NCBI GenBank assembly: GCA_963664115.2 | Contig: CAXWPJ010000009.1 | Span: 800,001 to 864,000, forward strand | DNA from: Terriglobia bacterium | GTDB taxonomy: Bacteria; Acidobacteriota; Terriglobia; 20CM-2-55-15 | Direction: 5' to 3' | DNA: 64,000 bases | In this document: positions 30,721 through 57,049 of the stretch, piece by piece | Layout of the letters: each line of letters opens with the position of its first letter | How positions within the stretch are numbered: position 1 is the stretch's first letter | Program-made: the position numbers and the translations under genes | The notes under the pieces: model-generated | Database searches by the model: none | Seen by the model: the letters and a program-made list of their open reading frames with translations, nothing else | Told to the model about the DNA's origin: nothing

Positions 30721-30962
30721 TAAGATTTCGCTCGGTCGTTCAATCGGTCATCCTGACCGAACGACCGGCGACCCTCTCCATCATCCTTGATGGAGAGCCT
30801 TATTAAGAATCACGGAATGTTGATGCAGTTCTTAGAAATAACCCGCAGCGTTCCTCGCTGCGGGTGGACAGCTTTCGCAGTGAAGACGCGATAGCCGAGG
30901 CGTCTGAGTAATGAAATGATCGGATGGGACGGCAGCAAATGTTGATGTCGAGTACTTCTAAC
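30721..30962. repeat. Multi-hairpin dispersed element, copy 1
   Basis: Reverse-complement similarity to 51883-52117 and 56879-57049; three hairpins. Confidence 0.85.
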
Positions 30963-30973
30963 TCAATCCCCTA

Positions 30974-32124
30974 GTGGTCCCCGTTAAACAGACTGTAACT
31001 TATCAAGATTTCGCCGGCCGCGCTGGACTTTAGCAAGGATGTCGGAAGCCGTTGCAGTCCAGATGAAGGGTTTCGGGTCTTCATTGTGACGAGCGAGGTA
31101 GTCCTCCACGGCCTGGATCAACTCGGGGACCGAGCGGAAAACGCCACGCCGGAGTCGTTGCTCGGACAGATCCCGGAAAAAGCGCTCGACCATGTTGAGC
31201 CACGACGCACTGGTTGGCGTGAAGTGCACATGAAAACGCTTGTTACGCTTGAGCCAGTTGACGACTTTCTGATGTTTGTGAGTCGCATAGTTGTCGCAAA
31301 TAATGTGGATCTCCTTATCTTTCGGCATGGCGCGTTTGATCTGATTCAGAAACCGGATCCATTCCTGATGGCGATGCTTTGGCATGCAGGTTCCGATGAC
31401 CGAACCGTCCAGGATGTTGAGCGCGGCGAAAAGCGTGGTTGTCCCGTTACGTTTGTAATCGTGGGTCATGGTGCCACACCGCCCCTTCTTCAGAGGTAAC
31501 CCGGGTTGCGTGCGGTCCAGGGCCTGCATCTGGCTCTTCTCATCGCAGGACAAGACAATGGCGTTTTCCGGTGGGCTCAGATACAGACCGACCACATCCT
31601 CCAGCTTTTCGGCGAATCGTTTGTCGTTGGATAGTTTGAAGGTTCGTGACAGATGAGGCTTCAGTCCATGGACCCGCCAGATTTTCCCGACCGTGGACTC
31701 GCTCACGCCAACGGCCTTCGCCATCGAGGCCCGACTCCAGTGCGTCGCGTTCGGGGGCTTCTCTTCCAGTGTCTTCTTGACGATCCGGGCTCGCTTCCGG
31801 CGACTGATCGTGGGAATCCGTCCGCTTCGCGGCGCATCCTTTTCGATCCCAGCCAAGCCCTGTTCCACAAAACGATTGCGCCAGCGGCCCGCTTTCTGGC
31901 GCGTGATCTCCAAGCGGGCGGCGATCTCATAATTGTTCCGACCTTCAGCGGCCAGTAATACAATTCGGGATCGTTCCGCCAACCGGACCGATGTACTCCG
32001 GCTTCGACTCAGTCGCTCCAACTCCATCCGCTGCTTGTCATCCAATTCAATGGTCGGTGCTTTCCTCATTCTCTATTGGACGTTGGAAAGCTATTTTAGT
32101 TACATTACTTCGAGCGGGGTACAC
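30974..32124 (-). mobile_element. IS630-family insertion sequence, apparently intact
   Basis: Imperfect 27-bp TIRs (GTGGTCCCCGTTAAACAGACTGTAACT and GTGTACCCCGCTCGAAGTAATGTAACT); TA duplication at 30972-30973 and 32125-32126 within CTAG. Confidence 0.92.
30984..32069 (-). CDS. IS630-family DDE transposase
   Basis: N-terminal HTH domains; SCDEKSQ, HDYKRNGTTTLF, CDNYATHK, SWLNMVERFF. Confidence 0.96.
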   Translation of the reverse strand: MRKAPTIELDDKQRMELERLSRSRSTSVRLAERSRIVLLAAEGRNNYEIAARLEITRQKAGRWRNRFVEQGLAGIEKDAPRSGRIPTISRRKRARIVKKTLEEKPPNATHWSRASMAKAVGVSESTVGKIWRVHGLKPHLSRTFKLSNDKRFAEKLEDVVGLYLSPPENAIVLSCDEKSQMQALDRTQPGLPLKKGRCGTMTHDYKRNGTTTLFAALNILDGSVIGTCMPKHRHQEWIRFLNQIKRAMPKDKEIHIICDNYATHKHQKVVNWLKRNKRFHVHFTPTSASWLNMVERFFRDLSEQRLRRGVFRSVPELIQAVEDYLARHNEDPKPFIWTATASDILAKVQRGRRNLDKLQSV

Positions 32125-33128
32125 TAGTTTCCACTACCCACCTCACCGCCAACAAACTCTTGATATTTGAGAACGTCGTCATGGCTGCCAATAATCAAGG
32201 GCACGCGCATCTGGAGCGAGTCCGGTTGGACGTTGAGTATCCGTTCGGTCCCGGTAGTCGCCAGGCCACCGGCCTGTTCGGCCACCATGGCCAGGGGGGA
32301 GGCCTCGTACAAAAGCCGCAGCTTGGCCTTGGGGCCTGGATAGAGAAAGATCCCACCCTTCAGAAGATTCCGGTGAAAATCGGCAACCAACGAGCCGATG
32401 TAGCGCATCGAATAGGGCCGACCTCCGGCTTCGTCATTTTCTTTCAGGTAGCGAACGTAGGCTTGGGTCGCGTCGTCCCACTTGGATTCATTGCCTTCGT
32501 TGATGCTGTATATCCTCCCCTGCTTCGGGCTCTGAATGTTCTCGTGCGAAAGGAGAAACTCGCCCAGAGGTGGATCCAGCGTAAACCCATGAACACCGTT
32601 GCCTGTCGTGTATACCATCATGGTGCTTGAACCATAGATGAAATAACCGGCGGCCACCTGTTTGTATCCGAGCTGGAGACAGTCCGCTTCGGTACCGTCA
32701 CCCTCCTCTGAAACTCTACGGTGGATCGAAAAGATCGTTCCAATACTCGTATTGACATCGATGTTGGAAGAGCCATCCAGCGGATCGTGAAGGAGGACGT
32801 ACTTGCCTCTTGGACTTCCGTCGGGAAGCAGAATGATCCCGTCTGATTCCTCCGACGCCATCACACAGAGCATTCCACAGCTGCCCATGGCCCGATAGAT
32901 CGTGCTATCGGCAAAGTCGTCCAGCTTCATAACGGTTTCGCCGTACACATTGATGCTGTCGGTTTCACCCAGAACGGTTTTAGCCAAGCCCGCGCGATTG
33001 ACGTCTCGAGAAATAATCTTTGCTGCCACTGTCAGGTTCGTAAGCAATGAAGTGAAATCACCGGTCGCTTCAGGATGTTTGCGTTCCTCATCCAGAATAT
33101 GTTGCTGAACTGTTTTAATCGCGCTCAT
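32124..33128 (-). CDS. fbp: Class 1 fructose-1,6-bisphosphatase
   Basis: ASEE, DPLDGSSNIDVN, YSINEGN, RYIGSLVADFHR, KLRLLYEA. Confidence 0.96.
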   Translation of the reverse strand: MSAIKTVQQHILDEERKHPEATGDFTSLLTNLTVAAKIISRDVNRAGLAKTVLGETDSINVYGETVMKLDDFADSTIYRAMGSCGMLCVMASEESDGIILLPDGSPRGKYVLLHDPLDGSSNIDVNTSIGTIFSIHRRVSEEGDGTEADCLQLGYKQVAAGYFIYGSSTMMVYTTGNGVHGFTLDPPLGEFLLSHENIQSPKQGRIYSINEGNESKWDDATQAYVRYLKENDEAGGRPYSMRYIGSLVADFHRNLLKGGIFLYPGPKAKLRLLYEASPLAMVAEQAGGLATTGTERILNVQPDSLQMRVPLIIGSHDDVLKYQEFVGGEVGSGN

Positions 33129-33133
33129 ACGTA

Positions 33134-34153
33134 TCAACTCTTAAGCTGTTGCACTTCTTCGCGGAGTCGCTGTAGTTCTTTCGCCATCTTGGGCAACCTC
33201 GCGACATATGCTTGCTGCAGTTTGATGTCTTTCAACGGGCGCGCTGGGGTCCCCCACAGCACCTGTCCCGCTCGGGAACGCTTCCCATTCAGAACCCCGC
33301 TTTGTCCCCCGATCACCGAGCCGTCATCAATTCGGGCCCCTTCGCCCACACCGACCTGCCCCCCGATCATCGCGTCGGCTCCGATGGAACAACTCCCTGA
33401 AACTCCGGTTTGGGCTGCAATCACTGTCCGGCCCCCGATGCGCACGTTGTGGCCGATGTGACACAGATTATCCAGTTTTGTTCCCTTTTCGATAATGGTT
33501 TGGCCCAACGATCCTCGATCGATCGTCGTGTTCGCTCCGATCTCGACATCATCTTCTATAACGAGTCGACCGCGCTGGGGAAACTTCAAGAGCGTGTCCC
33601 CGTCACGGACATAGCCGAAACCGTCAGACCCGATCACGACACCGGCATGGAGGATCACTCTGTTTCCGATCTGAGCGCCTTGATAGATCACCACGTTGGC
33701 GTGTATGACGCATTGAGATCCCACCGCGCACCCAGCGGCAATATAACATCCCGGGCGAACGACAGTGGACGGACCGATCCGGACATCGTCTTCGATGACG
33801 ACGTGGGCTCCGACCTCCACTCCGTCCCCCAGTTCAACGTCCTCACCGATGACAGCCGTCGGGTGCACCCCAGGAACCGCCCGGGCGGTTGGAATGAGCC
33901 ACTCGGCCGCTCGAATGAAAGCAACTTTCGGGTTCTGAACCACAATCGTAGTCTTCGCAGGATACTCGCCTTCCGAAACCAGAACACAGGAGGCCCGGCT
34001 CGAGGCCACGCGATCCTGGTAGCGTGGTTCGGCATAACTGAGATCCCCCTCACTCGCCTGGCCGAGATCGGCAACGTTCTCGATTGGCTCGGCAGGGGAA
34101 CCCTCCAACCGTCCGCCAAGAAATTCGGCCAGTTCTCCGGCTGTTCGTTTCAT
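33134..34153 (-). CDS. lpxD: UDP-3-O-acylglucosamine N-acyltransferase
   Basis: Start MKRTAGEL (ATGA overlap with hemY stop); hexapeptide repeats; [29 protein letters not shown]. Confidence 0.93.
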
Positions 34154-35445
34154 GAAGCCCTCCGAAGGTATTCGATAACGGCACTGCCTGTCCGTTGGCC
34201 CTGCTCGATCGATGCGGGCACGGATACGCCATTCAAATAGTTGCCAGCCAGGAAAAGGCCTGGCTGTTTCGCTATCCTTTTCATCGCATCCTTTTTCCAA
34301 CGCGGCTGTCCGAGACGATATTGAGGAATCGCGCGTGGGTAGCGGAACAGCGCCAACTGTTTCACACCACCTTCAAATCCGAGAACCTGTTTCAATTCTG
34401 ATTCCACCGTTTCCCACACGCGCTCGTCCGACCACCGAACGATGTCCGGCTCAGTCGCGCCCCCAAGAAAACTGGTTAAAAGGGCCTTCCCTTCCGGTGC
34501 GCGACTCGGAAACAGACTGGAGCTGAATAGCGTTCCGAGGGTATGGAGACTCTCCCCTCGGGGCACCAGAAAGCCGAATCCGTCCAATGGGGTCCTCAAC
34601 TGTGCCTCACCCACGGAGGCGGCTACCACAAGAATCGGGGCGTATGGAACAGCCCGGAACACATTTCCAAGCTCTGGATCGATGGGTGTGAGCAAGGCCG
34701 ACACAGCATCGGCTGGAGCCGCGACCACCACGGCCTTCGCCTGAATTTGTCCGGCAGAGGAATCCACACTCCAACTCGGTTCTAAGCACGTGCCATCGAC
34801 ACCATAGCGAATATCCAGATTTCTGGCCAGGCCCCGGGGTAGCGTTTCCATCCCTCTTCGGAAGGACGAAAGCTTCGGACGTGGTCTCGATAGCGCCCCG
34901 CGCAGCACACCGAGCATAACGCTGCCGTAGAGTGACTCCAACTCCTTCATCCGCGGGAACGTCGCTTCGATCGACAGCTCTTCTGTGTCTCCAGCGTAGA
35001 TACCTCCAACGAACGGAGCAACGAGTCGATCATGAACCTCGGTTCCGAATCGCCGGCGAAAGAATGAGGCCAATGATTCGTCTCCTTGATCGCGATTTCG
35101 CGACATGAGCGGTTCCGCGAGAGCTCGGAGCGTACCGGCTGGAGAGAGAACCCATGGTGCCCTGCGTAGCTTGCCATTGACGTAAATGAACCTGGGAGAT
35201 TTCAGGGGCGCCACGACAATCTCCTCCATAAGACCGGCCTCCTGGAGAAATTCGATGGTGGCCCGCGTTGGGAGGATTGAGTTGGGACCCGATTCGACAA
35301 GGTAGCCGTCGAGCCGATGGCTTTGAATGACGCCGCCCGGTCGTCGCTTCGCTTCCAGAACGACTACGTCGAAACCTGCGCGTCGAATCTGCCACGCGCA
35401 GGCCAAGCCAGAGATCCCTCCTCCAATGACGACGACATCTGACAT
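34150..35445 (-). CDS. hemY: Proto/coproporphyrinogen oxidase (HemY/CgoX type)
   Basis: GGGISGL FAD motif, [24 protein letters not shown]. Confidence 0.9.
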
Positions 35446-35466
35446 GGCTAATAGGAGTTCGCTCGA

Positions 35467-36435
35467 CTACTCTTTCAAAGCAACTTCGACCAACTCTCGC
35501 AGCGACTGAATAAACGTAGGGTCACAGTTGAGGGCTGGAACCCGCCGATAGGTATCGATGCCCGCATCGGCAGCCACCTTTTTGTAAAGGATGTCGAGTT
35601 CGTAGAGCGTCTCGATGTGCTCGGACACGAAACTGACAGGGACGACCAGGATTTCATCCACCCCTTGCCTTCCAAGTTCAACAATCACGTCGTTCGTAGA
35701 AGGCCCGAGCCATTCAACCGGCCCGATCTTGCTCTGAAACGAAAGTCGGTATGGATTTATTCTTCCTAAGCGGTCCGCAATAAGCTCGACCGTTTCACGT
35801 GTCTGCTCCAGGTAGGGGTCGCCCTCGCGCACATAGCGTTCAGGAATGCTGTGGGCGCTGAACAAGATCTGCACGTTGTCGGGTTCAGGAAAGTCTTCAA
35901 GTTCTCTACGGATCATTTGAGTAATCGCGGATATGTAGGTGCTGTGGTTCTGCCACGACGATACCCAACGGACGTCAGTTCCGGCAAGCGCAGGTCGTTC
36001 CTGGATCAGGCGTTCAAGCGTACGGAAACCCGAGCCTGTGGTTGTCACCGAGTACTGGGGAAAGAGCGGCAGCACAACAAGACGGTCCACATCGTGGCGC
36101 TCGACCTCATCGAGTGTCTCGCTAAGAAACGGATGCCACGTGCACATGCCAACGAAAACATCGACCTGCATGCCAGCCCATCGCAGATCGTCCGAGAGGG
36201 CCTGGGCCTGTTCTTCCGTAATCCTTCGAAGAGGCGATCCCCCTCCAATCTTCCGGTAATACCCACACGACAGCCTTTTCCTCAAAGTCGCGATCAAATA
36301 AGCAACGGCATGACGGAGAAACGGAGATTTTATGCGAATGATCTCGGGATCCGAGAACAGTTCATACAGAAAGGGCTTGACCTCATCGAGGGATTCCGGT
36401 CCACCCAGATTAAAAACAATGACTGCGGTCTTCAT
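35467..36435 (-). CDS. hemH: Ferrochelatase
   Basis: NLGGP, GGGSPL, LFPQYS, FSAHSIP, SFQS, SEHIETLYELD. Confidence 0.95.
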   Translation of the reverse strand: MKTAVIVFNLGGPESLDEVKPFLYELFSDPEIIRIKSPFLRHAVAYLIATLRKRLSCGYYRKIGGGSPLRRITEEQAQALSDDLRWAGMQVDVFVGMCTWHPFLSETLDEVERHDVDRLVVLPLFPQYSVTTTGSGFRTLERLIQERPALAGTDVRWVSSWQNHSTYISAITQMIRRELEDFPEPDNVQILFSAHSIPERYVREGDPYLEQTRETVELIADRLGRINPYRLSFQSKIGPVEWLGPSTNDVIVELGRQGVDEILVVPVSFVSEHIETLYELDILYKKVAADAGIDTYRRVPALNCDPTFIQSLRELVEVALKE

Positions 36436-36472
36436 ACAATGCTTCGCATCGATACAGCGGGAAGAACAAATC

Positions 36473-36560
36473 TTTTTAACACGAAGGTCACGAAGGTCAC
36501 GAAGGACTTTAATTCAGTTTCTTCAATACCTGTTTGCCTTCGTTGCCTTCGTGTTAAAAA
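36473..36560. repeat. Intergenic palindrome of CACGAAGGT-type 9-mers
   Basis: Perfect 15-bp inverted ends TTTTTAACACGAAGG / CCTTCGTGTTAAAAA with tandem 9-mers in each arm. Confidence 0.8.
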
Positions 36561-36592
36561 TCCCATCCGATCAAGGTCAACATATCGCCAGG

Positions 36593-37612
36593 CTAGCTAT
36601 GTCTGTAGCTCTTCGCGAAATCGATGAACGCCTGTGCGTTCGTGACAGGTGTGGGGGGTAGAATTCCGTGTCCCAGATTCAGGATGTGGCCTGTGGGTCC
36701 CGCTTCTTCAAGAATCCTGGCGGTTCGCGCCAACATCGTGTCCCGATCACCGAGCAGGAGACATGGATCGAGGTTGCCCTGCACCGCCAGGTTATCTCCA
36801 ATCCGGTTACGGGCCTCTGCTATCGAAATCCGCCAATCGAGACTCAGGACATCCGCACCCGACCGAGCCATTGATTCAAGAAGCGCCGACGTTCCGTTCA
36901 GGTAAAGAATACGGGGCACCTCATCGCCAATCGCTTCGAAAATCTTCTGTGTGTACGGTAGGGCAAACTCTTCGTAATCGGTCTTGCTGAGTTCTCCAGC
37001 CCACGTATCGAAAAGTTGGACCACTTGCGCCCCGCATTCGATCTGATATCGAAGATAAGTGGCGATGGTGTCGGAGAGCTTGTCCATCAGCCGATGGACA
37101 AGCTCGGGTTGGCTGTATGCCATCCCTTTGATCACCGCAAAATTCTTTGAGCCACCGCCCTCGACCATGTAGGAACCGAGTGTCCAGGGAGCGCCGGCGA
37201 ATCCAATCAGGGGCACCGCGTCCCTCAGTTCGCTTCGAAGCGTGCGGAGCACTTCTCCGGTGAACGGAAACGCTTCATCAGGTTGCGGCACTTTCAGACG
37301 ATCGATGTCATCGGAACAGCGGACGGGATTACCAATCTCCGGTCCCTTGTCGGTGAGAGCCACGGAAACGCCCATCGCTTCGGCCGGAATCAGGATGTCG
37401 GAAAAAAAGATGACTGCGTCCACACCAAGAATCCGATACGGCTGCATCGAAACTTCTACAGCCAGGTCCGGGGTCTTGCACAATTCGAGAAAGGAAACGT
37501 CTTTCCGGATATCCCGATAGTCCTTCAGGTACCGGCCCGCCTGTCGCATCATCCAAACAGGCGATCGGGGAACACTCTCTCTTCTGCAGGCACGGATGAT
37601 CAAGTCGTTCAT
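36593..37612 (-). CDS. hemE: Uroporphyrinogen decarboxylase
   Basis: PVWMMRQAGRYL, FSDIL, GFAGAPWT, QGNLDP, NLGHGI. Confidence 0.97.
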   Translation of the reverse strand: MNDLIIRACRRESVPRSPVWMMRQAGRYLKDYRDIRKDVSFLELCKTPDLAVEVSMQPYRILGVDAVIFFSDILIPAEAMGVSVALTDKGPEIGNPVRCSDDIDRLKVPQPDEAFPFTGEVLRTLRSELRDAVPLIGFAGAPWTLGSYMVEGGGSKNFAVIKGMAYSQPELVHRLMDKLSDTIATYLRYQIECGAQVVQLFDTWAGELSKTDYEEFALPYTQKIFEAIGDEVPRILYLNGTSALLESMARSGADVLSLDWRISIAEARNRIGDNLAVQGNLDPCLLLGDRDTMLARTARILEEAGPTGHILNLGHGILPPTPVTNAQAFIDFAKSYRHS

Positions 37613-37699
37613 GATTTCGGATGGAACCTTCGATTAAATGGAAGCCGTTCGGTCAGGGGTCCAGGTTGAAACAAGGTCGTATGATACAATATCGCCTCG

Positions 37700-38470
37700 A
37701 TGCAGACATCCGAAACCGGGCTCAAGGCGCCGGTCGATGGCCAGCTAAGTCCTTCTGATCCCTATATTTCCATAGTTGTCCCTGCTTATAACGAGGCGCT
37801 TCGAATCGGCCCATCGGTTGAGGGCATTTTGCGTTTCATCGATGCCCGCCAGTTCGAGGCTGAAGTCATACTCGTTGATGATGGATCCGTCGACGATACC
37901 TCGAAAATAGCCTCCGCCTTCCCCCTCCGCATCATTCGTAATGGCTCCAATCGGGGAAAAGGATACAGCGTGCAACGCGGTGTTCTGGAAGCCAAAGGAG
38001 CCTGGGTGCTCTTTACCGATGCAGATCTGTCCGCGCCCATCGAAGAGTTGGACAGCCTTCTCGAGATGGGGGAAGACGGCGCTGATGTCGTCATCGGATC
38101 CCGAGCCGTGGACCGCTCGAAAATCAGTGTTCATCAAAGTCGATTCCGGGAAGTGGGAGGCATCTTCTACAACTTGATCGTTCGCCTGACGCTTGGGCTC
38201 TCCATCCAGGACACACAGTGCGGATTCAAGTTGTTTCGGCGAGAAACGACGTCCCAGGTCTTTCGGAATCAGACCATCCATGGTTTCGGCTTCGATCCCG
38301 AGATCCTGTTTCTTGCCAAACGCCAGGGATTGACGATCCGCGAAGTCCCTGTCGCATGGAGCCACGACGCGGGATCCAAGGTCCACTTCTTCAGCGACGG
38401 CCTCGAGATGTTCCTCGACCTGGCCCGCATACGATGGAACGCGTTGATGGGACGCTATGAAAAGAAATGA
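37700..38470 (+). CDS. GT2 glycosyltransferase (dolichyl-phosphate glucosyltransferase-like)
   Basis: VVPAYNE, VDDGS, NRGKG, TDAD, DTQCGFK. Confidence 0.9.
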   Translation: MQTSETGLKAPVDGQLSPSDPYISIVVPAYNEALRIGPSVEGILRFIDARQFEAEVILVDDGSVDDTSKIASAFPLRIIRNGSNRGKGYSVQRGVLEAKGAWVLFTDADLSAPIEELDSLLEMGEDGADVVIGSRAVDRSKISVHQSRFREVGGIFYNLIVRLTLGLSIQDTQCGFKLFRRETTSQVFRNQTIHGFGFDPEILFLAKRQGLTIREVPVAWSHDAGSKVHFFSDGLEMFLDLARIRWNALMGRYEKK

Positions 38471-38510
38471 ACAGTAACGAGTGAGGCGTGACGGGAAGGA
38501 GTGTCCGAAA

Positions 38511-38582
38511 CTTCGTTACCTTCGTGTCTGCGTGTTGAAAAACATCCCAGCGATCTCTGCGTTTCTGCGTCTCGGCGTTGGA
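38511..38582. repeat. Degenerate arms of the 9-mer palindrome family
   Basis: cttcgttaccttcgtgtctgcgtgttgaaaa and ctctgcgtttctgcgtctcggcgtt. Confidence 0.5.
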
Positions 38583-38585
38583 ATT

Positions 38586-39323
38586 TTAGTTCGTAGACTG
38601 CGAAATTATCTGGAGGTACCGCCTAAGAGTCCCCTCGAAGCCATGGTCAAAGGATTCCACGACAATGGCGTGGCCGATTGAAACTTCCTGGATGGCTTGG
38701 ATCGTAAGGAATTTCGGCAGGTTGTGCAGGTTCAGGTCGTGCCCCGCGTTGACGCCTATCCCCAGGCTTTCGGCGTGGAGGGCCGCCTCGGAGAACCGTT
38801 TCCACACGGCCTCTTCATCAGGCGTTCCAAAGGCGCGCGCATAGGGTTCGGTGTAGAGTTCGATTCTCTCGGCACCGATTGCCTTTACGCGGGCTATCTG
38901 GGCTTTCACCGGATCCATGAACAAGCTGACACGGATGCCGGCGGACCGGAGGTCGCCGACGATTGGCCTCAAACTGTCGCCGTCGGTTTCGAGATTCCAC
39001 CCGTGGTCTGAGGTCAACTGATTCGGGTCGTCAGGCACGAGGGTGCATTGGTGGGGCCTGACGTCTTTCACGATCTTCAAGAATTCCGGGATGGGATTGC
39101 CTTCGATGTTGAACTCAACGTCCGGATGGGCACCGGTCAACTCGGACAGCTCGTGGACATCGGAATAACGAATGTGGCGTTGGTCCGGCCGGGGATGCAC
39201 CGTAATCCCGTGCGCACCGGCCGCAATCGCTCGTTGGGCCATATTCGCTACGTTCGGGTAGTCGGTGTCGCGGGAATTGCGGATCAGAGCGATCTTGTTA
39301 ACGTTGACGCTGAGTTTGGTCAT
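38586..39323 (-). CDS. pdxJ: Pyridoxine 5'-phosphate synthase
   Basis: LSVNVNKIA, GITVHPRPDQRHI, NIEG, TSDHGW, NAGHDL, EVSIGH. Confidence 0.95.
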   Translation of the reverse strand: MTKLSVNVNKIALIRNSRDTDYPNVANMAQRAIAAGAHGITVHPRPDQRHIRYSDVHELSELTGAHPDVEFNIEGNPIPEFLKIVKDVRPHQCTLVPDDPNQLTSDHGWNLETDGDSLRPIVGDLRSAGIRVSLFMDPVKAQIARVKAIGAERIELYTEPYARAFGTPDEEAVWKRFSEAALHAESLGIGVNAGHDLNLHNLPKFLTIQAIQEVSIGHAIVVESFDHGFEGTLRRYLQIISQSTN

Positions 39324-42208: not shown

Positions 42209-42216
42209 TTGATGGG

Positions 42217-45998: not shown

Positions 45999-46003
45999 TG
46001 GCT

Positions 46004-46699: not shown

Positions 46700-46706
46700 T
46701 TTCCGC

Positions 46707-46949: not shown

Positions 46950-46995
46950 GGTCTACTCTTTCCTTGAAGACGAACCTACCGTTAAGAACAAAGAG

Positions 46996-47100
46996 TTCAA
47001 CACGAAGGTCACGAAGATTAACGAAGTAAGAGAAGGTTTGTATCAGAAGAAAAAGCTTTCTTCGTGCCCTTCGTTAGCCTTCGTGCCCTTCGTGTTAAAA
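46996..47100. repeat. Intergenic palindrome of CACGAAGGT-type 9-mers
   Basis: ttcaacacgaaggtcacgaagattaacgaag ... cttcgtgcccttcgttagccttcgtgcccttcgtgttaaaa. Confidence 0.8.
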
Positions 47101-47105
47101 AAACA

Positions 47106-48416: not shown

Positions 48417-48428
48417 ATCTCCGCTCTC

Positions 48429-49217
48429 CTAAGCTAGTTCTATGGGTGGACTTGGCGTGTCCTGTGAAGCCAGCGAGACCGAGGTCCCGGCAAAACCTTT
48501 CGAAGACAGGGCCTGGCACGCTTCCAGCCGGGCGATTTCAGGGTGGTTGTTCTTGGAACTGAGATGGGCCAGAACAAGATGCTCAGCCTCACCGTCGAAA
48601 GATTCTGCGAGATAGCGGCCGACGGTCGCGTTGGAAAGGTGCCCGTTTCTGCCCACCAGCCTTTCCTTCAGACTCCAGGGATAGGGTCCCATCCGGAGCA
48701 TGTCGACATCGTGATTCGACTCCAGGATCAGGATGTGACTCCCCTTCATGAAATCCGCTACGTGATCGGGAATCCAGCCCAGATCGGTCAGTTGAGTCAC
48801 CTTGATACCATTGTAGCGCACTGAAAAAGCCGTGGGCTCCTCGGCATCATGGGGAACGGCAACCGTATCGACTTCCACATCCCCGATCGTAAAGCTCTGG
48901 CCGGGAATGACAGGCACAATGGCTGACCTGTTCATGTCGTAGCTGTCCACCCGGCTGCCATCGATAGTGCCGCACGACATGTACACATCGAGCGACATCT
49001 TCTTCACCATAGTCTTAAGACCCGCTACGTGGTCGGTGTGCTCGTGGGTGATCAGCACCGCATCGATCTTGTCCGGGTCCTCCCCGATGGCCCTGAGGCG
49101 CTTCGCCAGCGTCCTGGGACCGAGCCCGCAGTCGATGAGCAGGGAAACCCTCTCGGTCCGGATCAATGTCGCGTTACCCCGACTCCCGCTGCCCAGGACG
49201 GAAACTTTTATAGACAT
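48429..49217 (-). CDS. MBL-fold metallohydrolase (YycJ/WalJ-like)
   Basis: LGSGSRGN, THEHTDH, HD, TDLG, LESNHD, GHLSN, HLS. Confidence 0.9.
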   Translation of the reverse strand: MSIKVSVLGSGSRGNATLIRTERVSLLIDCGLGPRTLAKRLRAIGEDPDKIDAVLITHEHTDHVAGLKTMVKKMSLDVYMSCGTIDGSRVDSYDMNRSAIVPVIPGQSFTIGDVEVDTVAVPHDAEEPTAFSVRYNGIKVTQLTDLGWIPDHVADFMKGSHILILESNHDVDMLRMGPYPWSLKERLVGRNGHLSNATVGRYLAESFDGEAEHLVLAHLSSKNNHPEIARLEACQALSSKGFAGTSVSLASQDTPSPPIELA

Positions 49218-49367
49218 TCGAAGAAATCCAAGCAAGTGATTGGTGTGCAAGACTGTATCAGAGCCTGGGAAGAACCGCGGCCCGCGCTTGCTGTCACAGT
49301 ATCGGGACCAGAGTGGACAGGTCGGGGGAACCTACCAATAAAATCCGAATTTCGATAGAATACACCT

Positions 49368-49931
49368 ATGCGTCTCAAGCCATTTGTGTTCTTCTCCCTG
49401 GTCGGGTTGCTGGCGGGTTATGCCATCTACCGGGAATCAGTCGCGCCGGATCCGACCTTGATCGGCTCTGTGGCACCTGAGTTCGAACTCACGGACCAGG
49501 ATGGCCAGACCGTCCGCCTCAGTGACTACGCCGGAAACCTGGTGTTCCTCAACTTCTGGGCCACCTGGTGCGAACCTTGCATCGTTGAGATGCCGGACAT
49601 GATGGCCTTGAATGAGACCTTTGAGGGCCGCCCCTTCAAGATGCTCGCGATCAGCATCGACACCAATTGGGAAGACGTTCGCGAGTTTTACGAAGAACAT
49701 GGCCTGGACATCCCGACAGCCCTGGACCCGGGCCGCCAGGTTTATACAAAATACAGGGCCCTCGGCGTACCGGAAACGTTCTTCATCGATGGTAACGGAA
49801 ACATTGTCCAGAAGTTCATCAGCTACCGCCGATGGATGAGTCCCCAGTTTCTGACTGAAATCGAAGAACTGGTAGCCCGGCACGAAAACGGCACGCTCTC
49901 TGAAGCGATCAGCAGCCGAACCGGGGATTGA
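49368..49931 (+). CDS. TlpA/ResA-family thiol-disulfide oxidoreductase
   Basis: N-terminal anchor; NFWATWCEPC; GVPETFFID. Confidence 0.92.
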   Translation: MRLKPFVFFSLVGLLAGYAIYRESVAPDPTLIGSVAPEFELTDQDGQTVRLSDYAGNLVFLNFWATWCEPCIVEMPDMMALNETFEGRPFKMLAISIDTNWEDVREFYEEHGLDIPTALDPGRQVYTKYRALGVPETFFIDGNGNIVQKFISYRRWMSPQFLTEIEELVARHENGTLSEAISSRTGD

Positions 49932-49941
49932 CCCGTCCCCC

Positions 49942-51093
49942 GTGCCCGAATCCCTTCCCGACAGTCCCACATCTCTGGAATCGTTCTTCGAGCTTTCACG
50001 GGATGAACTCGCCACCGCTCTGGATCCCCCGTTTCGGGCAACACAGCTCTACAAAGCCGTTTACAAGCAATGGATAGCTGAGTTTGACGCGATCACGAAC
50101 CTGCCCAAGTCACTGAGAACAACCCTGAAAGCCAGGTGGAACATCCAAACCCCACCCATCCATAGGACGTTTGAATCCGCCGACGGGACCCGTCGCCACT
50201 TGATCCGTCTCTCAGATGGAGAAATGGCTGAAACCGTTTTTATACCCGAAGAGACCCGGAACACAATCTGCGTTTCCTCCCAGGTCGGCTGCCCTCTGGC
50301 CTGTGGATTCTGCCTGACCGGCCAACTCGGATTCGTCCGCCACCTGAGCCCTGGAGAAATCGTCTCCCAGGTACTCGTCGCCCAAAGGGAAAACCTCGGC
50401 CCAGACAGCACAATCGACGACACGCCTGAGGACGAGCCTACAGACACTCGCGGAGCCAGAGATTTCTATCGCGATCACTTCAACATTGTCCTCATGGGAA
50501 TGGGCGAACCCCTCCACAACTATGACAACGTCATGAAGGCCCTAGCCATCCTGAACGACCCAATGGGTCTCAACGTCTCGATGTCACGCATCGTGCTGTC
50601 GACCGCCGGCTTGATTCCCGAACTACGGCGTCTCGCCCAGGAGCGTCTGATTCCGAACCTGGCGGTCTCACTCACGGGCGCGACGGACCCCACGCGCGAT
50701 CGTCTGATGCCGATCAATCGAACCTACCCGATCAAGGACCTGGTTTCAGTTCTCAGAGACTTTCCCTTCAAGCCCAGGCAGCACGTCATGCTGGAATATG
50801 TCTTGCTCCGAGGCGTGACCGACGCCCCCGATCAGGCTCGGGATCTGGCAGCAATCGCCCGCAAGGTTCGGGCGAAAGTGAACTTGATTCCCCTGAACGA
50901 GTCCCCTGACCTGGAATTCAAACGCCCGGATCAGGCCACCATTGTGCGCTTCCACAAGATTCTCCTGGACGCAGGGATTCCTGTGTTCGTTAGAAAAAGC
51001 CGAGGGGACGACATTTCCGCTGCCTGCGGCCAACTGAAAAAGAAGTGGGCCGAATCCCCTGCCCAGATCGATCTTGCAGTCCTCGAGCTGTAG
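49942..51093 (+). CDS. rlmN: 23S rRNA/tRNA C2-methyltransferase (radical SAM)
   Basis: CVSSQVGCPLACGFC, MGMGEP, NLIP, AACGQL. Confidence 0.95.
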   Translation: MPESLPDSPTSLESFFELSRDELATALDPPFRATQLYKAVYKQWIAEFDAITNLPKSLRTTLKARWNIQTPPIHRTFESADGTRRHLIRLSDGEMAETVFIPEETRNTICVSSQVGCPLACGFCLTGQLGFVRHLSPGEIVSQVLVAQRENLGPDSTIDDTPEDEPTDTRGARDFYRDHFNIVLMGMGEPLHNYDNVMKALAILNDPMGLNVSMSRIVLSTAGLIPELRRLAQERLIPNLAVSLTGATDPTRDRLMPINRTYPIKDLVSVLRDFPFKPRQHVMLEYVLLRGVTDAPDQARDLAAIARKVRAKVNLIPLNESPDLEFKRPDQATIVRFHKILLDAGIPVFVRKSRGDDISAACGQLKKKWAESPAQIDLAVLEL

Positions 51094-51132
51094 CGGAAGG
51101 TTACTGACCAACAGAACCCGCCCGGCGGAACA

Positions 51133-51774
51133 CTATTCACCCCGCGAGTAGCGGCACACGATCACTGCAAGGCCCGAGCCAAGGACTGGCGCGAGCAGGT
51201 AGACCCACACATACTGAAGCTGCCCGCTGACAAGTGCCGGCCCCAGCGACCTGGCCGGGTTCATCGACGCACCGGAAATTGGCCCCCCGAACAGGGCGGC
51301 CAGCCCCACGACAGCTCCAACGGCAAGTCCGGCTGTGGCGCCCTTCTCTTTGGCTCCCGTCGCCACATTGAGAATCGTGAACATCAGGAGGAAAGTGAGA
51401 ACGATCTCCAGCACGAATGACTGTCCGACGCTGCCCGTGGGAAGCGTTGCGCCAAGCGTCGGGTGCGGGCCTAAGAGCACCCGAACCAGGACACTGCCCG
51501 CTAACGCCCCCAGGACTTGACTCGCGACATAGGGAATAATGTCGGCCCCAGGAAAGCGTCCGGCGAGCCAGAAACCTAGTGTTACGGCCGGATTGAGGTG
51601 TGCACCTGATATGTCACCGACGGCGTAGATCATCGCCATCACGACGAGTCCGAAAGTCAGGGCGATCCCGACGTGGGAAACAACCCCAGAACCTGTGTCG
51701 TTCACGACGATGGCGCCTGTTCCCGCGAATACGAGGGCGAAGGTAGCGATCATTTCAGCTGCAAATCTCTGCAC
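51133..51774 (-). CDS. MIP-family channel (NIP-like aquaporin)
   Basis: SGAHLNPAVT and SGASMNPARS NPA boxes; six hydrophobic helices. Confidence 0.92.
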   Translation of the reverse strand: MQRFAAEMIATFALVFAGTGAIVVNDTGSGVVSHVGIALTFGLVVMAMIYAVGDISGAHLNPAVTLGFWLAGRFPGADIIPYVASQVLGALAGSVLVRVLLGPHPTLGATLPTGSVGQSFVLEIVLTFLLMFTILNVATGAKEKGATAGLAVGAVVGLAALFGGPISGASMNPARSLGPALVSGQLQYVWVYLLAPVLGSGLAVIVCRYSRGE

Positions 51775-51882
51775 AAGATCTCCTGGAAGAGATTAAGAAT
51801 TCAGTAGGAGACAGTAACATGGGGGAGATGGGAAGGATCTGGCAGGCGGGGCAAGACAGACAGGAGCCAACGCGTTCGCTGG

Positions 51883-52148
51883 GTTAGAAGTTTGCTGCTA
51901 AATCCTCATACATTACCGCGTACCATCCGATCATCTAATTACTCAGACGCCTCGGCTACCGCCTCGTTGTCCACCCGCAGCGAGGAACGCTGCGGGTTTG
52001 TTTGAAGAATTGGATCAAGCTTTCCTAGTCCCCAATTAAGCCTCTCCATCAGGATGATGGAGAGGGTCGCCGGTCGTTCAGACAGGATGTCTGAAAGAAC
52101 GACCGAGCGAAATCTTATATCTCAATCTTCAATCAGAGGACTCTGATC
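51883..52148. repeat. Multi-hairpin dispersed element, copy 2
   Basis: acccgcagcg-aggaa-cgctgcgggt; ctctccatca-gga-tgatggagag; cggtcgttcagaca-gga-tgtctgaaagaacgaccg; atcaga-ggac-tctgat. Confidence 0.85.
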
Positions 52149-52185
52149 AGCGGGCCTAACTCTGCAACAAGCCTGCGCCGTTGTT

Positions 52186-53466
52186 CTATGCAATACGCTT
52201 CCGGCCATTACGGCTGCGACTGGACCAATTGCGGTTGCCGTTTTTAGGCTGTCGTCCAGGTCGCATGCCACGCACGTTGTTACCGTAGGGCGTGCTGCGG
52301 TTGTCAGAACGCTCGGCGTAATCAGGTTCGAAGCCGGCGACCTTGCGACGCGGGATGGTCTCTCCGATCATGCGTTCGGTGGCGCGAACCCAGTCGCGAT
52401 CGATTCCTGTCACGAACGTGCAGGCGATGCCCTCGAGTTCGGCGCGACCGGTCCGTCCGATGCGATGGGTGTAAGCTTCCGGCGTGTTCGGCACATCGAA
52501 GTTGATCACATGGGAAACACCACTCACATCGATGCCGCGAGCCACGATGTCCGTGGCCACAAGGATGTTGAAGCGGCGCACGCGGAAGCCACTCATGGCA
52601 CGATCGCGTTGGGCCTGTGACATGGATCCCTGCAGACCGATGGCCCGGTGTCCATTCCTGATCAGTTGCTCGGCTAATCGCCGGGCCCGGTGCTTCGTCC
52701 GAGTGAAGACAATGGCCGAATCGCAGTCGTCACCGGTGAGCAAGTGCTCGAGCAGGTCTCTCTTGCGCCTCTCCTCGACCATATACAAGCCATGGTCGAC
52801 GGTGGCAACTGGAGCCCTACCGGCCAGGTCCACCACGTGGGGATCCTTCAGCAGATCGTCGGCCAGCCGGCGAATCTCCCTCGGCATGGTTGCCGAAAAT
52901 AGCAGGTTCTGCCGTCGCTGGGGCATCGGGGCCAGGATCTTGCGAATGTCGGGCAAGAAGCCCATATCGAACATGTGATCGGCCTCATCGAGGACGAGGG
53001 TTTCAATTTGGCCGAGGCGAAGGACTCTCTGCTGTAGCAGGTCGAGCACGCGACCCGGACAGCCCACAATGATCTCCGGGTGCTGGCGTAGCGAATTGAT
53101 CTGGTTTTGCGTTGAGACGCCGCCGTAGACGGTGACTGTCTTCAGACGGGTAAACCGGGACAGTGTGCGGATCTCAGCCGCGATCTGCGTGGCGAGTTCC
53201 CGTGTGGGGGCAAGCACGATAGCTCGAGGGCCCTTGCCCCGCTCCCTGAGGAGCCGGTCAAGCAGCGGCAACGCGAATGCCGCCGTCTTGCCAGTGCCGG
53301 TCTGGGCCAGGCCCAGCACGTCGCGCCCAGCGAGACCCGCGGGGATCGTCTCGATTTGAATCGGTCGGGGATTGTCGAAGCCAATGGCGCGGATACCGCG
53401 AACGAGGGCTTCATGGAGCTCGAACCGGTCGAAACCGGTAGGAGCGGTAGATACTGAACTAGACAT
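52186..53466 (-). CDS. rhlE: DEAD-box RNA helicase (RhlE-like)
   Basis: AQTGTGKT, PTRELA, LDEADHM, FSAT, ARGID, HRIGRTGR; start at 53466 after GGAGAG (alternative start 53487). Confidence 0.9.
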   Translation of the reverse strand: MSSSVSTAPTGFDRFELHEALVRGIRAIGFDNPRPIQIETIPAGLAGRDVLGLAQTGTGKTAAFALPLLDRLLRERGKGPRAIVLAPTRELATQIAAEIRTLSRFTRLKTVTVYGGVSTQNQINSLRQHPEIIVGCPGRVLDLLQQRVLRLGQIETLVLDEADHMFDMGFLPDIRKILAPMPQRRQNLLFSATMPREIRRLADDLLKDPHVVDLAGRAPVATVDHGLYMVEERRKRDLLEHLLTGDDCDSAIVFTRTKHRARRLAEQLIRNGHRAIGLQGSMSQAQRDRAMSGFRVRRFNILVATDIVARGIDVSGVSHVINFDVPNTPEAYTHRIGRTGRAELEGIACTFVTGIDRDWVRATERMIGETIPRRKVAGFEPDYAERSDNRSTPYGNNVRGMRPGRQPKNGNRNWSSRSRNGRKRIA

Positions 53467-53487
53467 CAAAAATTTACTCTCCGCCAT

Positions 53488-53620
53488 ACGCGCACAGGCA
53501 TAACCCGCACGGCAGGGCCGTAGTTTCCGACCCAGACAACAGCTAAGGGTTAGAGGGATTGGTTAGCGACACGACCTCGGAAGGATTAGAAAAGAGGTCC
53601 TGTTGATCGTCGCTGTCGGG
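53488..53620 (-). promoter_or_regulatory. Putative structured 5' leader of the helicase gene
   Basis: Nested stems ccgac/gtcgg, agcgac/gtcgct, gacctc/gaggtc, plus a G-U-rich hairpin at 53491-53511. Confidence 0.4.
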
Positions 53621-53742
53621 CTGACGCCCAATCTAAGCACAACAATGGTAGCTGGTTTGGTCGACTATTACCAGCCCTGCCCCCGGGACGGGAGGATTCG
53701 GCGGCACAATTTCGGCGCTATGAATGCGGCGCTATGAATGCT

Positions 53743-54591
53743 TCATTGTTTTTCAGCGACGATGTAAACGATGAAGGCAGTATCGGCTTCGCCGTGTTCG
53801 GCAGGGGTATATTCGCCGTTGCCTTCCCCGCTCTCCTCCTCGGTTCCCTCCCAGTACACGGTGACGCGTTTGAAGCCCGCCTCCAGCAATATTTCCCGGA
53901 TTTCGGGAAGACTCCACAGACGCCAGTCGTAGGTAAAGGCCCTCTTTATGCGGGAGCCATCTGGGAAAGTGAAGTCGATGTGACACAGGAAATCACCGCT
54001 GATGGGATCGTAGCGTTCCTGATCCCACACGTAATTAAACGTGTCGTGAACCGTTTTTTCGGTCATCTCCTGGTGGGCATCGGAACCACCATAGGCGTCA
54101 AGCATGAATAGGCCATCCGGACCCAGGCCTTTATGGACGGTCCTGAAGTACCGGCGCAGGAGCTTTCGGTCCTTGAAAATCCAGTAGCTGAAGTTCATCG
54201 CAAGTACGACGTCGACGGGCGCGCAATCGACTTTCAGAACGTTGGCTTTCAGGAGCTCGATACGTTTGCTTGCAGGTCCGAGCCCCGCAATGTGGTGTTC
54301 GCGACCCCATTGCTGGACCTCAGCGTCCAGATCGACGCCGATGGCATGATTGCTACGGCGTCGGCGCACCCATTCGCAAGCCGAGTTGCCCGTGCCGCAG
54401 AAGTCTTCGCGTAACCACTTCGCCTGCCGGCCCCGCAATTCAATAAACGTTTCGTCCACGAAGTCGATTTCAGCTTCCGCACACTGCACGGCCTCTTCAT
54501 AGAGCACGTGAGGGTCGGCGCGCTCGGCCATGGTGGGCCCGGATTTCTTAGCCTTCCGATCAGAACCGGAAGCCGACGCTTTGGGAGACAT
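53743..54591 (-). CDS. Class I SAM-dependent methyltransferase
   Basis: LREDFCGTG, GVDLD, NFSY, FTYDWRLWSLPEIRE. Confidence 0.85.
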   Translation of the reverse strand: MSPKASASGSDRKAKKSGPTMAERADPHVLYEEAVQCAEAEIDFVDETFIELRGRQAKWLREDFCGTGNSACEWVRRRRSNHAIGVDLDAEVQQWGREHHIAGLGPASKRIELLKANVLKVDCAPVDVVLAMNFSYWIFKDRKLLRRYFRTVHKGLGPDGLFMLDAYGGSDAHQEMTEKTVHDTFNYVWDQERYDPISGDFLCHIDFTFPDGSRIKRAFTYDWRLWSLPEIREILLEAGFKRVTVYWEGTEEESGEGNGEYTPAEHGEADTAFIVYIVAEKQ

Positions 54592-54666
54592 TCAATAATT
54601 CCTCATGAAAATTAAATGGTGGTGCGTGTCGCCATTTCCTGGGCGACCCGTGCCTGACAGCAGAGG

Positions 54667-54969
54667 CTACATGACGCGGTCGTGCCCCCAGGTCCAGCGG
54701 GCCGATATGTCGAACTCCTTGATCGCGTCCGGATGGGCATGGAGAGTTTGCTTGTTGAAGACCACTCCCAACTCCCGAAGCAGCAGTTCCAGGACCTCGG
54801 AGCCATAGCTCAGACGCGGAAACTCGACCCCGTCCTTGTTGATGTCGAGTACGCGGGTATGGGCTGGGGAAATGACCACACGGCGGAGTGAGCGCAGTTT
54901 CTCGGTCTCGCGGCGAAAGAACTGAGTGAGTTCGGACGCGTCTTCAATGGAGCCGGTGTAAGCGATCAC
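54667..54969 (-). CDS. Small hypothetical protein (start uncertain, GTG 54969)
   Basis: Fills the gap between co-directional genes; protein-like composition and GC3-rich codons. Confidence 0.55.
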   Translation of the reverse strand: MIAYTGSIEDASELTQFFRRETEKLRSLRRVVISPAHTRVLDINKDGVEFPRLSYGSEVLELLLRELGVVFNKQTLHAHPDAIKEFDISARWTWGHDRVM

Positions 54970-54989
54970 AGTATCGAAGGGAATTGAAC

Positions 54990-56123
54990 TCAGTAGGTGT
55001 CGCGAAGCCACCGTACGATTTCATCAATCGTGTTCGGTGCGGCCAGCGAGCGAAGGGTTCCGCCTTGGGCTGAACTGACGGTAATGCGTGATGCGCCGGT
55101 GATGAACTCCCGAACCGCTTGCCCGGTCTCCCGGTCGGGGACGATCAGGTGAGCCATCCTCGGGCTGAACTCGCGTGCAGTTCCAGCCATCGCCAAAGCC
55201 TCATCGAGAACAGGATTGATCGCAACCGCAGATCCAACTTCAGGAAAACGGCCCGCAGCAACCAACGCAAGATTGGCTCCAATGTCCGATCCAATGACGG
55301 CAATCCGGTTCGAGTCCAGGCGGGGCTGGGATTTCAGCCAATCCAGGGCCGGCTCCATGTCCAGAGGAAACTGCCGGGAATCGGTCCGCCATATCTCCGC
55401 CGCGCTTATCTCTTCCTGATTTCGCAGGCGGCTTTGCCCATGCCCCCGGAGATCCAGCGTCATCACCGCCCAGCCTTCCAGCAACAGTCTCTCTTTCAAA
55501 TCGTTCCAGACTGACCGCGTCTCGCCATAGCCGTGAAGCAGCAGTGCCGCGGGTATGGGCGCCGGAATTCCCTCGGGGCTCTCAAAAGAACCCCACAACT
55601 GGACGAGATCAAAGGTTTCAAGCGTTAGCGCTCCCGGTTCGTCCGCTTCAGTGATGGCGGCCGGTATGATCGTCACGTCCAGTTCGAACGACAGCACGTT
55701 GTCGGGCCGGTCCAAGAATTTGCTTACGACTCGCCTTTCCGATTCCTTACCTTCGAACTCCGCATAAACCTCATAGTCAACACCGGGAGGCAGACCATTC
55801 ACCGCGTACACGCCACTATCGTCGGTGAAATGTGTCCGGGTCACACCCGTGTCCACATTGAGAATAGAAACGCGGGCGCCAGGAATCGCTTGTCCACGTA
55901 AGTCGGAAACCACACCTGTAATGTTCTTGGGGCGGGGCGGGATGGGACGTTGCGCCGATTCAGCAATCCCAACGACCGCAAACAAGAGAACCAGCACACC
56001 CAGGATGCGCCGGGGGCTTCGGCCCCGATCCAGTGGAACAATTGGATCCAGAGGAAAAACCGGTGGAAATACCGGTGGAAATAATGGATGGATGGTATCG
56101 CGCATTACAGTCATCCCAATCAT
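54990..56123 (-). CDS. Secreted carboxypeptidase-regulatory-like domain fused to an alpha/beta-hydrolase fold
   Basis: ITGVVSDLRGQAIPGARV...TDDSGVY; LLHGYG, DLRGHGQS, RIAVIGSDIGAN; start uncertain. Confidence 0.8.
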   Translation of the reverse strand: MIGMTVMRDTIHPLFPPVFPPVFPLDPIVPLDRGRSPRRILGVLVLLFAVVGIAESAQRPIPPRPKNITGVVSDLRGQAIPGARVSILNVDTGVTRTHFTDDSGVYAVNGLPPGVDYEVYAEFEGKESERRVVSKFLDRPDNVLSFELDVTIIPAAITEADEPGALTLETFDLVQLWGSFESPEGIPAPIPAALLLHGYGETRSVWNDLKERLLLEGWAVMTLDLRGHGQSRLRNQEEISAAEIWRTDSRQFPLDMEPALDWLKSQPRLDSNRIAVIGSDIGANLALVAAGRFPEVGSAVAINPVLDEALAMAGTAREFSPRMAHLIVPDRETGQAVREFITGASRITVSSAQGGTLRSLAAPNTIDEIVRWLRDTY

Positions 56124-56174
56124 CGATCCCCTTGCCGCGCCGTTTCGAGCCTCAGTGGTTTCTGCCTGGGGTTG

Positions 56175-56699
56175 TTAGTTTTGGAGCAGTCGTTGGATGA
56201 CCGCTTCGGTCTCTTCGTATCGCCCGATGCCGGTATGGCTCAGCTGAATGACGCCTTCCTGATCCACAACGTAGTGTGTCGGCCATGCGTTACATACGTA
56301 GTCCAACCAGGTCAGGTACTCGTGGTCGATGGTCACTGGGTATTCGATTCCCTTTGCAACAACCGCACGGCGAACATCGTCAACGTTTTTCTCAAACTCG
56401 CCCCGTGGCGTATGCACGCCGATGATCACCAGCCCCTGATCCGCATACTTCGCGTGCAGGTCCTTAATATGTGGCAGCGTCTTTGCGCACTCGGGACAAT
56501 CCCAGGCCCAGAAGTCGATCAAAACGACTTTCCCCCTCAGTGCCTCCAGGGTCATGGGCTCTGAGTTGATCCACTCACTGGTCTTCAAGGCCGGTGCCAT
56601 CTGGCCGACGAAGGCGTCGTCGGGGTGTTGCGCCCCAGCGTTAACCGTAAACAGCAACATGATGGCCACGAAGCTCAAGCCTGGCAATTTTCCCAGCAT
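56175..56699 (-). CDS. Secreted redoxin (TlpA/DipZ-like)
   Basis: Start MLGKL after GGAG; DFWAWDCPEC; GVHTP; AWPT. Confidence 0.88.
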   Translation of the reverse strand: MLGKLPGLSFVAIMLLFTVNAGAQHPDDAFVGQMAPALKTSEWINSEPMTLEALRGKVVLIDFWAWDCPECAKTLPHIKDLHAKYADQGLVIIGVHTPRGEFEKNVDDVRRAVVAKGIEYPVTIDHEYLTWLDYVCNAWPTHYVVDQEGVIQLSHTGIGRYEETEAVIQRLLQN

Positions 56700-56878
56700 C
56701 GATTTCTCCATTGCTTGAGTGATAAACACCGCTCCATTTTGTCACAGTCTAAATTGGGAAGCTACTATCGCGGTGTCATCGTGATCTGTTGGTTTGGAAG
56801 TTTCGCTGGGGGGAGAGGGAGGATTCCGCTCGGCCCAGTCATGTGCTTATTCGGATACGTCAGTTCAACCTTAAGCAC

Positions 56879-57049
56879 TGACGCCTCGGCTGCTGCCTCG
56901 TTGTCCACCCGCAGCGAGGAACGCTACGGGTTTTATTAAAGAACTACATCAACATTTCTTGTTCCCCAATACGCCTCTCCATCAGGATGATGGAGAGGGT
57001 CGCCGGTCGTTCAGACAGGATGTCTGAAAGAACGACCGAGCGCAATCTT
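56879..57049. repeat. Multi-hairpin dispersed element, copy 3
   Basis: Near-identical to 51946-52116 in the hairpin regions. Confidence 0.85.

Follow-up and report, generated by a model that had tools for sequence, protein, structure and literature searches.

The 64,000-nt stretch of a Terriglobia bacterium genome analyzed here (the window, to which the positions below refer) carries three copies of a repeated element which is a miniature inverted-repeat transposable element (MITE) of the IS630 type. The element contains three hairpins (H1, H2 and H3) and a structured part beside H1 (module A), which make up its interior or core; its strands are named here after the motif of the hairpin loops, GGA or UCC. 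Its copies have IS630 ends, are represented at empty sites by a lone CTAG, are dispersed over the genome, have decayed at their ends while retaining the core, combine alleles in mosaics and show a biased gene context. We give a probability of about one half to the reading that it is a non-autonomous IS630-type MITE inserting at CTAG near gene ends, whose modular core has been kept by gene conversion together with selection, at the level of the family, for recognition by a protein. The hairpins are likely to be recognised by a putative protein, for which CsrA is possibly a candidate.

The element was noticed in an earlier inspection of the window (the original prediction). The positions of the three copies with their common hairpins (Table 1), the inverted orientation of copy 1, the divergence of the spacers and the covariation of the inner H3 stem are all borne out. 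The boundaries had been drawn too narrowly, the real unit being larger and having 24-bp inverted repeats at its ends. On both strands the predicted fold of copy 2 is far more stable than those of shuffled sequences (z -5.7 and -6.1).

Terminal repeats and target sites

When copies were aligned with their flanks, the consensus of both ends was the same 24-bp terminal inverted repeat (TIR), starting with CTAG, in the host genome (G000, 4.89 Mb) and in the relatives, represented by four genomes of the same genus (G001-G004). In G001 and G002, both ends of the young copies agree with it in 20-24 of their 24 positions. In 18 of 79 metagenome loci the same repeat bounds elements of 1.15-1.19 kb that encode an IS630 transposase, which is 46-55% identical to that of the IS630 in the window. 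It had been advised that empty sites be sought in relatives, and orthologous empty sites with a single CTAG were indeed found: for four of the nine mappable young copies (L288, L289, L294 and L298) the empty site in G000 holds a lone CTAG, the rest being filled or too diverged, and L014 likewise faces a lone CTAG. Overall, 52 of 75 copies of the relatives could be placed at a syntenic site in G000, of which 18 are filled (13 with near-full copies) and 34 empty. Because the 24-bp ends are shared with IS630 elements and the empty sites are CTAG, the element is an IS630-type MITE. Of the three interpretations offered originally, namely a small RNA, a CsrA sponge and a mobile palindromic element under structural selection, the third came closest: the element is a MITE of the IS630 type, and its core is under constraint.

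A second IS630-like end type also encloses the core (about 13 copies flagged) and a third encloses module A alone, so that three sets of IS630-like ends enclose the same core or part of it; the second and third types were picked by eye through their inverted ends starting with CTAG/GTAG and are not matched to autonomous elements. The IS630 of the window was considered as the parent and rejected, as its TIRs differ and it is a passenger that arrived later at a shared CTAG. This IS630 has recently expanded, with 26 near-identical full-length copies in the genome, all at CTAG; among about 31 full-length IS630 copies, five adjoin or lie inside the element.

The 24-bp IS630 ends of the MITE also bound 27 short elements of 58-405 bp with a different, REP-like hairpin cargo (L109, L112, L122, L125, L132, L142, L146, L155, L156, L165, L166, L170, L177, L179 and others), which suggests that this IS630 group often captures palindromic repeats. 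A 276-bp MITE with these ends (L110:1501-1776) contains two matches to the Rfam family Acido-Lenti-1 (45 and 33 bits), and this orphan motif may be a cargo of IS630 MITEs.

Copy number and distribution

Far from being a three-copy element, as originally described, it gives 84 profile hits in G000, 59 of them above 40 bits and 44 near-full, with 40 partial or weak. The near-full copies are spread over 9 of 12 contigs, non-coding and, by our own gene calls, intergenic; the unit is 265-310 bp long. All four same-genus genomes contain the element (91 exact H3 matches in G002), and partial sets of 49 (G002), 14 (G001), 7 (G004) and 4 (G003) copies were taken from them; the genomic collection that had been recommended yielded dozens of copies.

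Outside the genus, module A was found in three of five genomes of another genus (g3), and H2/H3 as one or two diverged copies in each of G022, G049 and G017. A model of H2/H3 matched 6 of 150 genomes in a sample of the class, all from the same family, and the element was present in none of 400 other genomes of the phylum (two candidates scored per genome). Searched plasmid and phage collections gave no match; viral contigs gave nine pattern hits, and the model, run on seven of these, matched once and weakly (L043, 23 bits). Hits in short contigs of bins labelled as other phyla (L015, L017 and L022) are probably mis-binned; L015 was retained in the 119-copy set used below. The window had no Rfam match at gathering scores, and three loci carrying the element gave none for it at E up to 5. 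No title or abstract on this family or on a MITE-derived CsrA sponge was found in the literature searched, and the supplements of a census of prokaryotic MITEs (10.1101/2024.01.18.576219) could list the family. Three short contigs of one metatranscriptome, about 90% like the core and with most single-copy parts uncovered, were not used as evidence because they are unstranded and possibly derived from DNA.

Conservation and shuffling of the core

In identity to the consensus over the 119 copies, module A (0.86) and H2/H3 (0.91) exceed the TIRs (0.61-0.63) and the spacers (0.62-0.72). Fourfold degenerate sites are 0.67 identical between G000 and G002, a value comparable with that of the ends, and the ends therefore seem to drift neutrally. 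Identity of the H3 stem (about 98%) shows no relation to TIR decay (rho 0.03, n=105) and still amounts to 0.977 in the class with the most decayed ends; spacer identity tracks the decay (rho 0.52). Both correlations were calculated without the copies of the second end type, which were flagged by a loose motif match.

The hairpins covary: in H2/H3, 97.5% of the cells are paired and 9 of 27 pairs show double changes (0 of 500 shuffles), and in module A with H1 the count is 9 of 18 pairs (0 of 500 shuffles), these counts being inflated by kinship among copies. Within the genus the outer stem of H3 is invariant rather than covarying, with 3 double (compensatory) changes in 1534 cells; in g3 four compensatory changes leave the H3 stem intact together with its loop and both bulges. 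The statement that every loop reads GGA was too general, since GGA is present in 73 of 103 parsed H1 loops and missing from 15 of 30 long H3 alleles. In the short H3 loops GGA is kept in 84 of 88; the adjoining bulge occurs in ten forms, of which the commonest accounts for 39 of 88, and the single bulged A of H3 is kept in 116 of 118. The fixation of loops, single bulged A and internal loop, as against the freedom of the neighbouring bulge, has a p of about 2e-14.

Three modules occur as discrete alleles, two of which are indels of 12 and 22-23 nt. All eight combinations of the three module alleles are present, and copies that share a site in two genomes differ in their alleles; such mosaics suggest recombination between copies. 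Copies at the same site are in opposite orientation in 6 of 18 cases.

It might be supposed that no selection is involved and that the core is kept solely by gene conversion and template-switch repair of palindromes. The mosaic alleles agree with this, as do a few loop inversions typical of template switching (H1 1/103, H2 2/118) and the rare single-sided changes, which follow the neutral transition/transversion spectrum. Such a process does not account for the inequality of the unpaired positions, fixed in some parts and free in a neighbouring one, or for an H3 kept through four compensatory changes in g3, and this explanation is already disfavoured and appears improbable.

In one case of opposite orientation (L075:1870-2150 and G000:C2:787882-788157) the two same-site copies have derived letters in common, which fits an in-place flip between the TIRs; other pairs may have arisen by re-insertion. 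A diversity-generating retroelement was rejected as the source of variation, since the variable parts lack an adenine bias; five reverse transcriptase matches were noted in the host. A small open reading frame in the linker, HDV and hammerhead ribozymes, group II intron domains, a K-turn and attC were rejected by eye against the known consensus.

Gene context and strand

According to the original prediction the element always lies just 3' of a gene, its copies starting about 50-70 nt after the stop codon with the UCC strand as sense. Each core in the window does start 49-70 nt past a stop codon in this sense; genome-wide the arrangement is a bias and not a rule. By our own gene calls, the 44 near-full copies of G000 comprise 22 between convergent genes (22/44, against a background of 16%), 11 in tandem contexts with UCC as sense, 7 in tandem contexts with GGA as sense and 4 between divergent genes. 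In the relatives, where 14 of 74 copies were unclassed for orientation, the 60 classed ones are 24 convergent, 28 tandem UCC-sense, 5 tandem GGA-sense and 3 divergent. Tandem contexts thus favour UCC over GGA as sense by 39:12 (p about 2e-4, the copies not being independent). Core identity and GGA retention are alike across gene contexts; for GGA, the comparison by presence or absence of an upstream gene on the GGA strand gives 129/154 against 105/125, shows no preference and assumes that there is no internal promoter. The neighbouring genes are unrelated housekeeping genes with a few insertion sequences (IS); a scan of 96 proteins encoded by neighbours beyond the window gave no mobile-element matches other than unrelated IS transposases, and none of the neighbours covered proved to be one of the RAYT or DUF559 genes that had been thought worth seeking beside copies.

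The preference for the UCC strand stands in part. It is upheld by the tandem ratio and by module A, which folds better on that strand in 87% of 105 copies and has there its common G-U pairs and a purine-rich internal loop with tandem GA. The reason first given for it, a wobble pair in H1 of copy 3, falls away, as this pair is a rare state and rare states split 26:31 between the strands; in total, over 4026 stem cells of H1-H3, from which 7 of 118 H2 rows had been dropped as mis-parsed, the GGA strand has 63 G-U pairs and the UCC strand 36.

These observations lend themselves to a reading in which the host selects each copy as a UCC-strand structure at the 3' end of an mRNA that it would stabilise, process or insulate, as proposed for ERIC, NEMIS and REP RNAs. 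The upstream gene is in UCC sense for 85 of 104 classified copies, module A is better formed on that strand, and such roles are described for other MITEs in PMC2229807. Core identity is, however, no higher where UCC is the sense strand; selection on structure alone leaves the near-invariant sequence of the outer H3 stem within the genus unexplained; and copies at shared sites are frequently lost or truncated. We regard this reading as rather unlikely. The more specific proposal, placed first in the original prediction, of a 3'-UTR-derived small RNA whose UCC loops pair with Shine-Dalgarno sequences has in its favour that these loops lie on the strand which is usually sense. Since the loops are of only 5-6 nt on very stable stems of 10-17 bp, such pairing could presumably not extend; a target-specific region is lacking, the neighbours are unrelated housekeeping genes, Rfam gives no match, and the proposal is very improbable.

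CsrA as a candidate ligand

Predicted loops of the GGA strand contain GGA in 209 of 301 cases; the corresponding figure for 27 control MITEs with the same ends is 4 of 83, counting both strands. Two or three GGA loops are present in 73 of 117 copies. Of the 83 perfect A(N)GGA hairpins of the genome (stem of at least 6 bp), 64 lie in copies of the element, and the six-nt loop variants are mostly ANGGAT. The H2/H3 loops match the CsrB repeat CAGGA(U/A/C)G as given in PMC7652899. The host, where a check for csrA had been advised, has two csrA genes, one with a full-length domain beside fliW and the other matching profile positions 1-43 only. The three of five g3 genomes that have module A are the three that have csrA (kin and not independent).

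The element could accordingly be imagined as a domesticated multi-copy CsrA-binding RNA, GGA-strand transcripts with two or three GGA hairpins per copy jointly titrating CsrA like a dispersed CsrB. The loop counts, the match to the CsrB repeat, the two csrA genes, the co-occurrence in g3 and ANGGAT motifs in four of six flagellin leaders of the host would agree with this. On the other side, GGA is the disfavoured sense in tandem contexts (12:39), GGA is kept equally well with or without an upstream gene on its strand, and no promoter consensus was seen near copy 2. GGA is lacking from half of the long H3 alleles, as noted above, and from the H2 loops of g3. The stems of 10-17 bp with five-nt loops differ from the selected CsrA hairpins of PMC7652899, which have mostly no more than 4 contiguous pairs and six-nt loops, and CsrA of the FliW type is described there as protein-controlled. 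Family-wide, csrA occurs in 22 of 24 genomes and the full element is limited to one genus; the invariant outer stem of H3 would also remain unexplained. As to the 3' end of a putative GGA-strand transcript, the terminator-like hairpin precedes H2/H3 instead of standing at the end. The antisense CsrA sponge of the original prediction survives as regards the CsrA-like loops, which are real and enriched over the control; the sponge role is not backed by the context test, and we consider it a live but rather unlikely alternative. The wider proposition, that a transposon-borne, self-homogenising three-hairpin module binding CsrA at 50-100+ sites per genome would be the main CsrA sponge of a FliW-type lineage, with the MITE as a dispersed CsrB, seems unlikely.

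The second csrA (L002:1402-1629) stands alone, lacks the conserved motif that follows profile positions 1-43 and occurs in most of the family's genomes; possibly it is a paralogue that has diverged or become inhibitory. The flagellin motifs were seen by eye in the leaders of six genes (L279-L284), two of them within predicted hairpins, and on account of these motifs canonical control of flagellin by CsrA is likely in this acidobacterial family.

A model of spread and maintenance

In the model which we favour, a MITE with a core kept by conversion and family-level selection, an IS630 transposase acting in trans would have spread the element. After insertion the ends would drift neutrally, and the interior could flip between them. 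The cores would be re-templated from other copies by gene conversion, and as a result only variants keeping the recognised stems, loops and bulges would persist. Selection for recognition by a protein would act on the whole family rather than on each copy, because core identity and GGA retention do not depend on context and because, of the 84 hits in G000, 40 are incomplete or weak. The host, for its part, would filter position and orientation: copies would be tolerated between convergent genes, and inside operons mainly with UCC as sense, because the GGA strand bears a terminator-like hairpin with a U-rich run, as formed by H1 of copy 2.

Several results weigh against this model. The recognising protein was not found. 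An autonomous IS630 with exactly these ends was seen neither in G000 nor beside 30 TIR loci of G001, G002 and G004; absence of the cognate transposase is common for old MITEs. Both Y1-type transposase (Y1_Tnp) genes of G000 are without a nearby copy. The strand signals conflict, module A favouring UCC and the common wobbles of H2/H3 favouring GGA. A run with U at five of eight positions follows H1 in 27 of 44 copies of G000 and in only 10 of 48 of G002, and the distance to the next start shows no significant difference (p=0.25), which makes the polarity idea weak. Finally, given the 6 of 18 same-site pairs in opposite orientation, some of these pairs may be independent insertions and not orthologues.

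Relation to known repeats

The closest relatives in kind are the IS630-type MITEs RUP of Streptococcus pneumoniae, Correia/NEMIS and ERIC, which in PMC2229807 are likewise small, non-coding, intergenic and strongly folding, share TIRs with IS630, use a TA-type target, lie at gene ends and attract other IS insertions. Compared with these, the TIRs of the present element are its least conserved part and the interior its most conserved one, and the interior, made up of modules, recombines from copy to copy and is found within different IS630-like ends, with the cognate autonomous element not found in the host.

REP, BIME and REPIN sequences, as treated in PMC3733652, are similar in their short conserved hairpins, their location downstream of genes and their enrichment between convergent genes, and also in the alternating inverted arrays formed by module A in g3, though not in G000. 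The element appears, by inspection, to lack their consistent terminal GTAG/CGTC tag, and it differs from them in having no flanked RAYT in G000 and a unit bounded by IS630 ends. On the UCC strand the alignments show module A closed by a CGTC that is paired, and GTAG is present only in some loop alleles. The g3 arrays have no such IS630-like ends. A strict consensus for an IHF site beside the palindromes, as in BIME-1 and NEMIS, matched none of 119 g1-type copies, and a few g3 copies match it by eye. At L241:1230-1900 (G022) there is a BIME-like array with a period of 307 bp, in which two module A variants alternate in orientation without IS630 ends.

With RNAs of the CsrB/RsmZ type (PMC7652899) the element has in common CAGGA(U/A)G in hairpin loops, several such sites per molecule and a host with CsrA. 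It departs from them in its 2-3 instead of about 18 sites, its long stable stems, a promoter that was not found, its dozens of mobile copies, the FliW-linked CsrA and a GGA strand which is not the favoured sense. Acido-Lenti-1 (Rfam RF01687) is, like the element, an abundant structured motif without assigned function, and it has its two matches in another MITE with the same ends (L110); the core of the element has no sequence or model match to it.

An IS630 MITE at gene ends belongs to an ordinary class; a conserved and recombining interior which moves between IS630-like ends is unusual, and offers a concrete, testable case for the long-standing question of why REP/BIME-like repeats stay conserved. 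The Acido-Lenti-1 matches at L110 suggest that MITEs of this sort carry some of the orphan structured motifs as cargo. If CsrA proved to be the ligand, the element would represent a mobile origin for a protein-sponge RNA.

Features of the window

The copies and their parts are listed in Table 1. The ends of copy 3 are too decayed to be placed (at most 12/24 TIR match), and its site is also filled by a copy of the element in G002 (L069).

Table 1 Copies of the MITE and the adjoining IS630 in the window; for the MITE the strand is that bearing GGA, and fractions are matches to the TIR consensus
Feature	Position	Strand	Remarks
Copy 1, whole unit	30691-30974	-	TIR left 17/24, right 12/24
Copy 1, left TIR	30951-30974	-	CTAG 30971-30974 common to the adjoining IS630
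Copy 1, module A and H1	30841-30904; H1 30841-30865	-	long allele of module A
Copy 1, H2	30774-30797	-	6-nt loop AAGGAT
Copy 1, H3	30729-30771	-	13-bp outer stem, single bulged A, 4-nt bulge, inner stem, AGGAT loop
Copy 2, whole unit	51871-52146	+	276 bp; TIR remnants 51871-51894 (16/24) and 52123-52146 (14/24)
Copy 2, module A and H1	51946-51997; H1 51973-51997	+	short allele of module A; followed by U-rich run, terminator-like on GGA strand
Copy 2, H2 and H3	H2 52042-52064; H3 52067-52109	+	
Copy 3, core	56880-57049; H1 56907-56931, H2 56975-56997, H3 57000-57042	+	
Young IS630	30971-32127	-	transposase 30984-32069; at CTAG that is FBPase stop and end of copy 1

A stretch of 38 bp at 17123-17160, inside the 3' end of a HEAT-repeat gene, is identical to an internal part of this IS630 (31542-31579, inverted) and is possibly a conversion scar or an assembly artefact. 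A second intergenic repeat family, whose inverted arms contain doubled CACGAAG motifs, is present at 36473-36559, 38511-38544, 46996-47101 and 61709-61796, and 44 doubled motifs were counted genome-wide. The PilB/GspE-like ATPase encoded at 28582-30672 has an N-terminal cyclic-nucleotide-binding domain ahead of MshEN.

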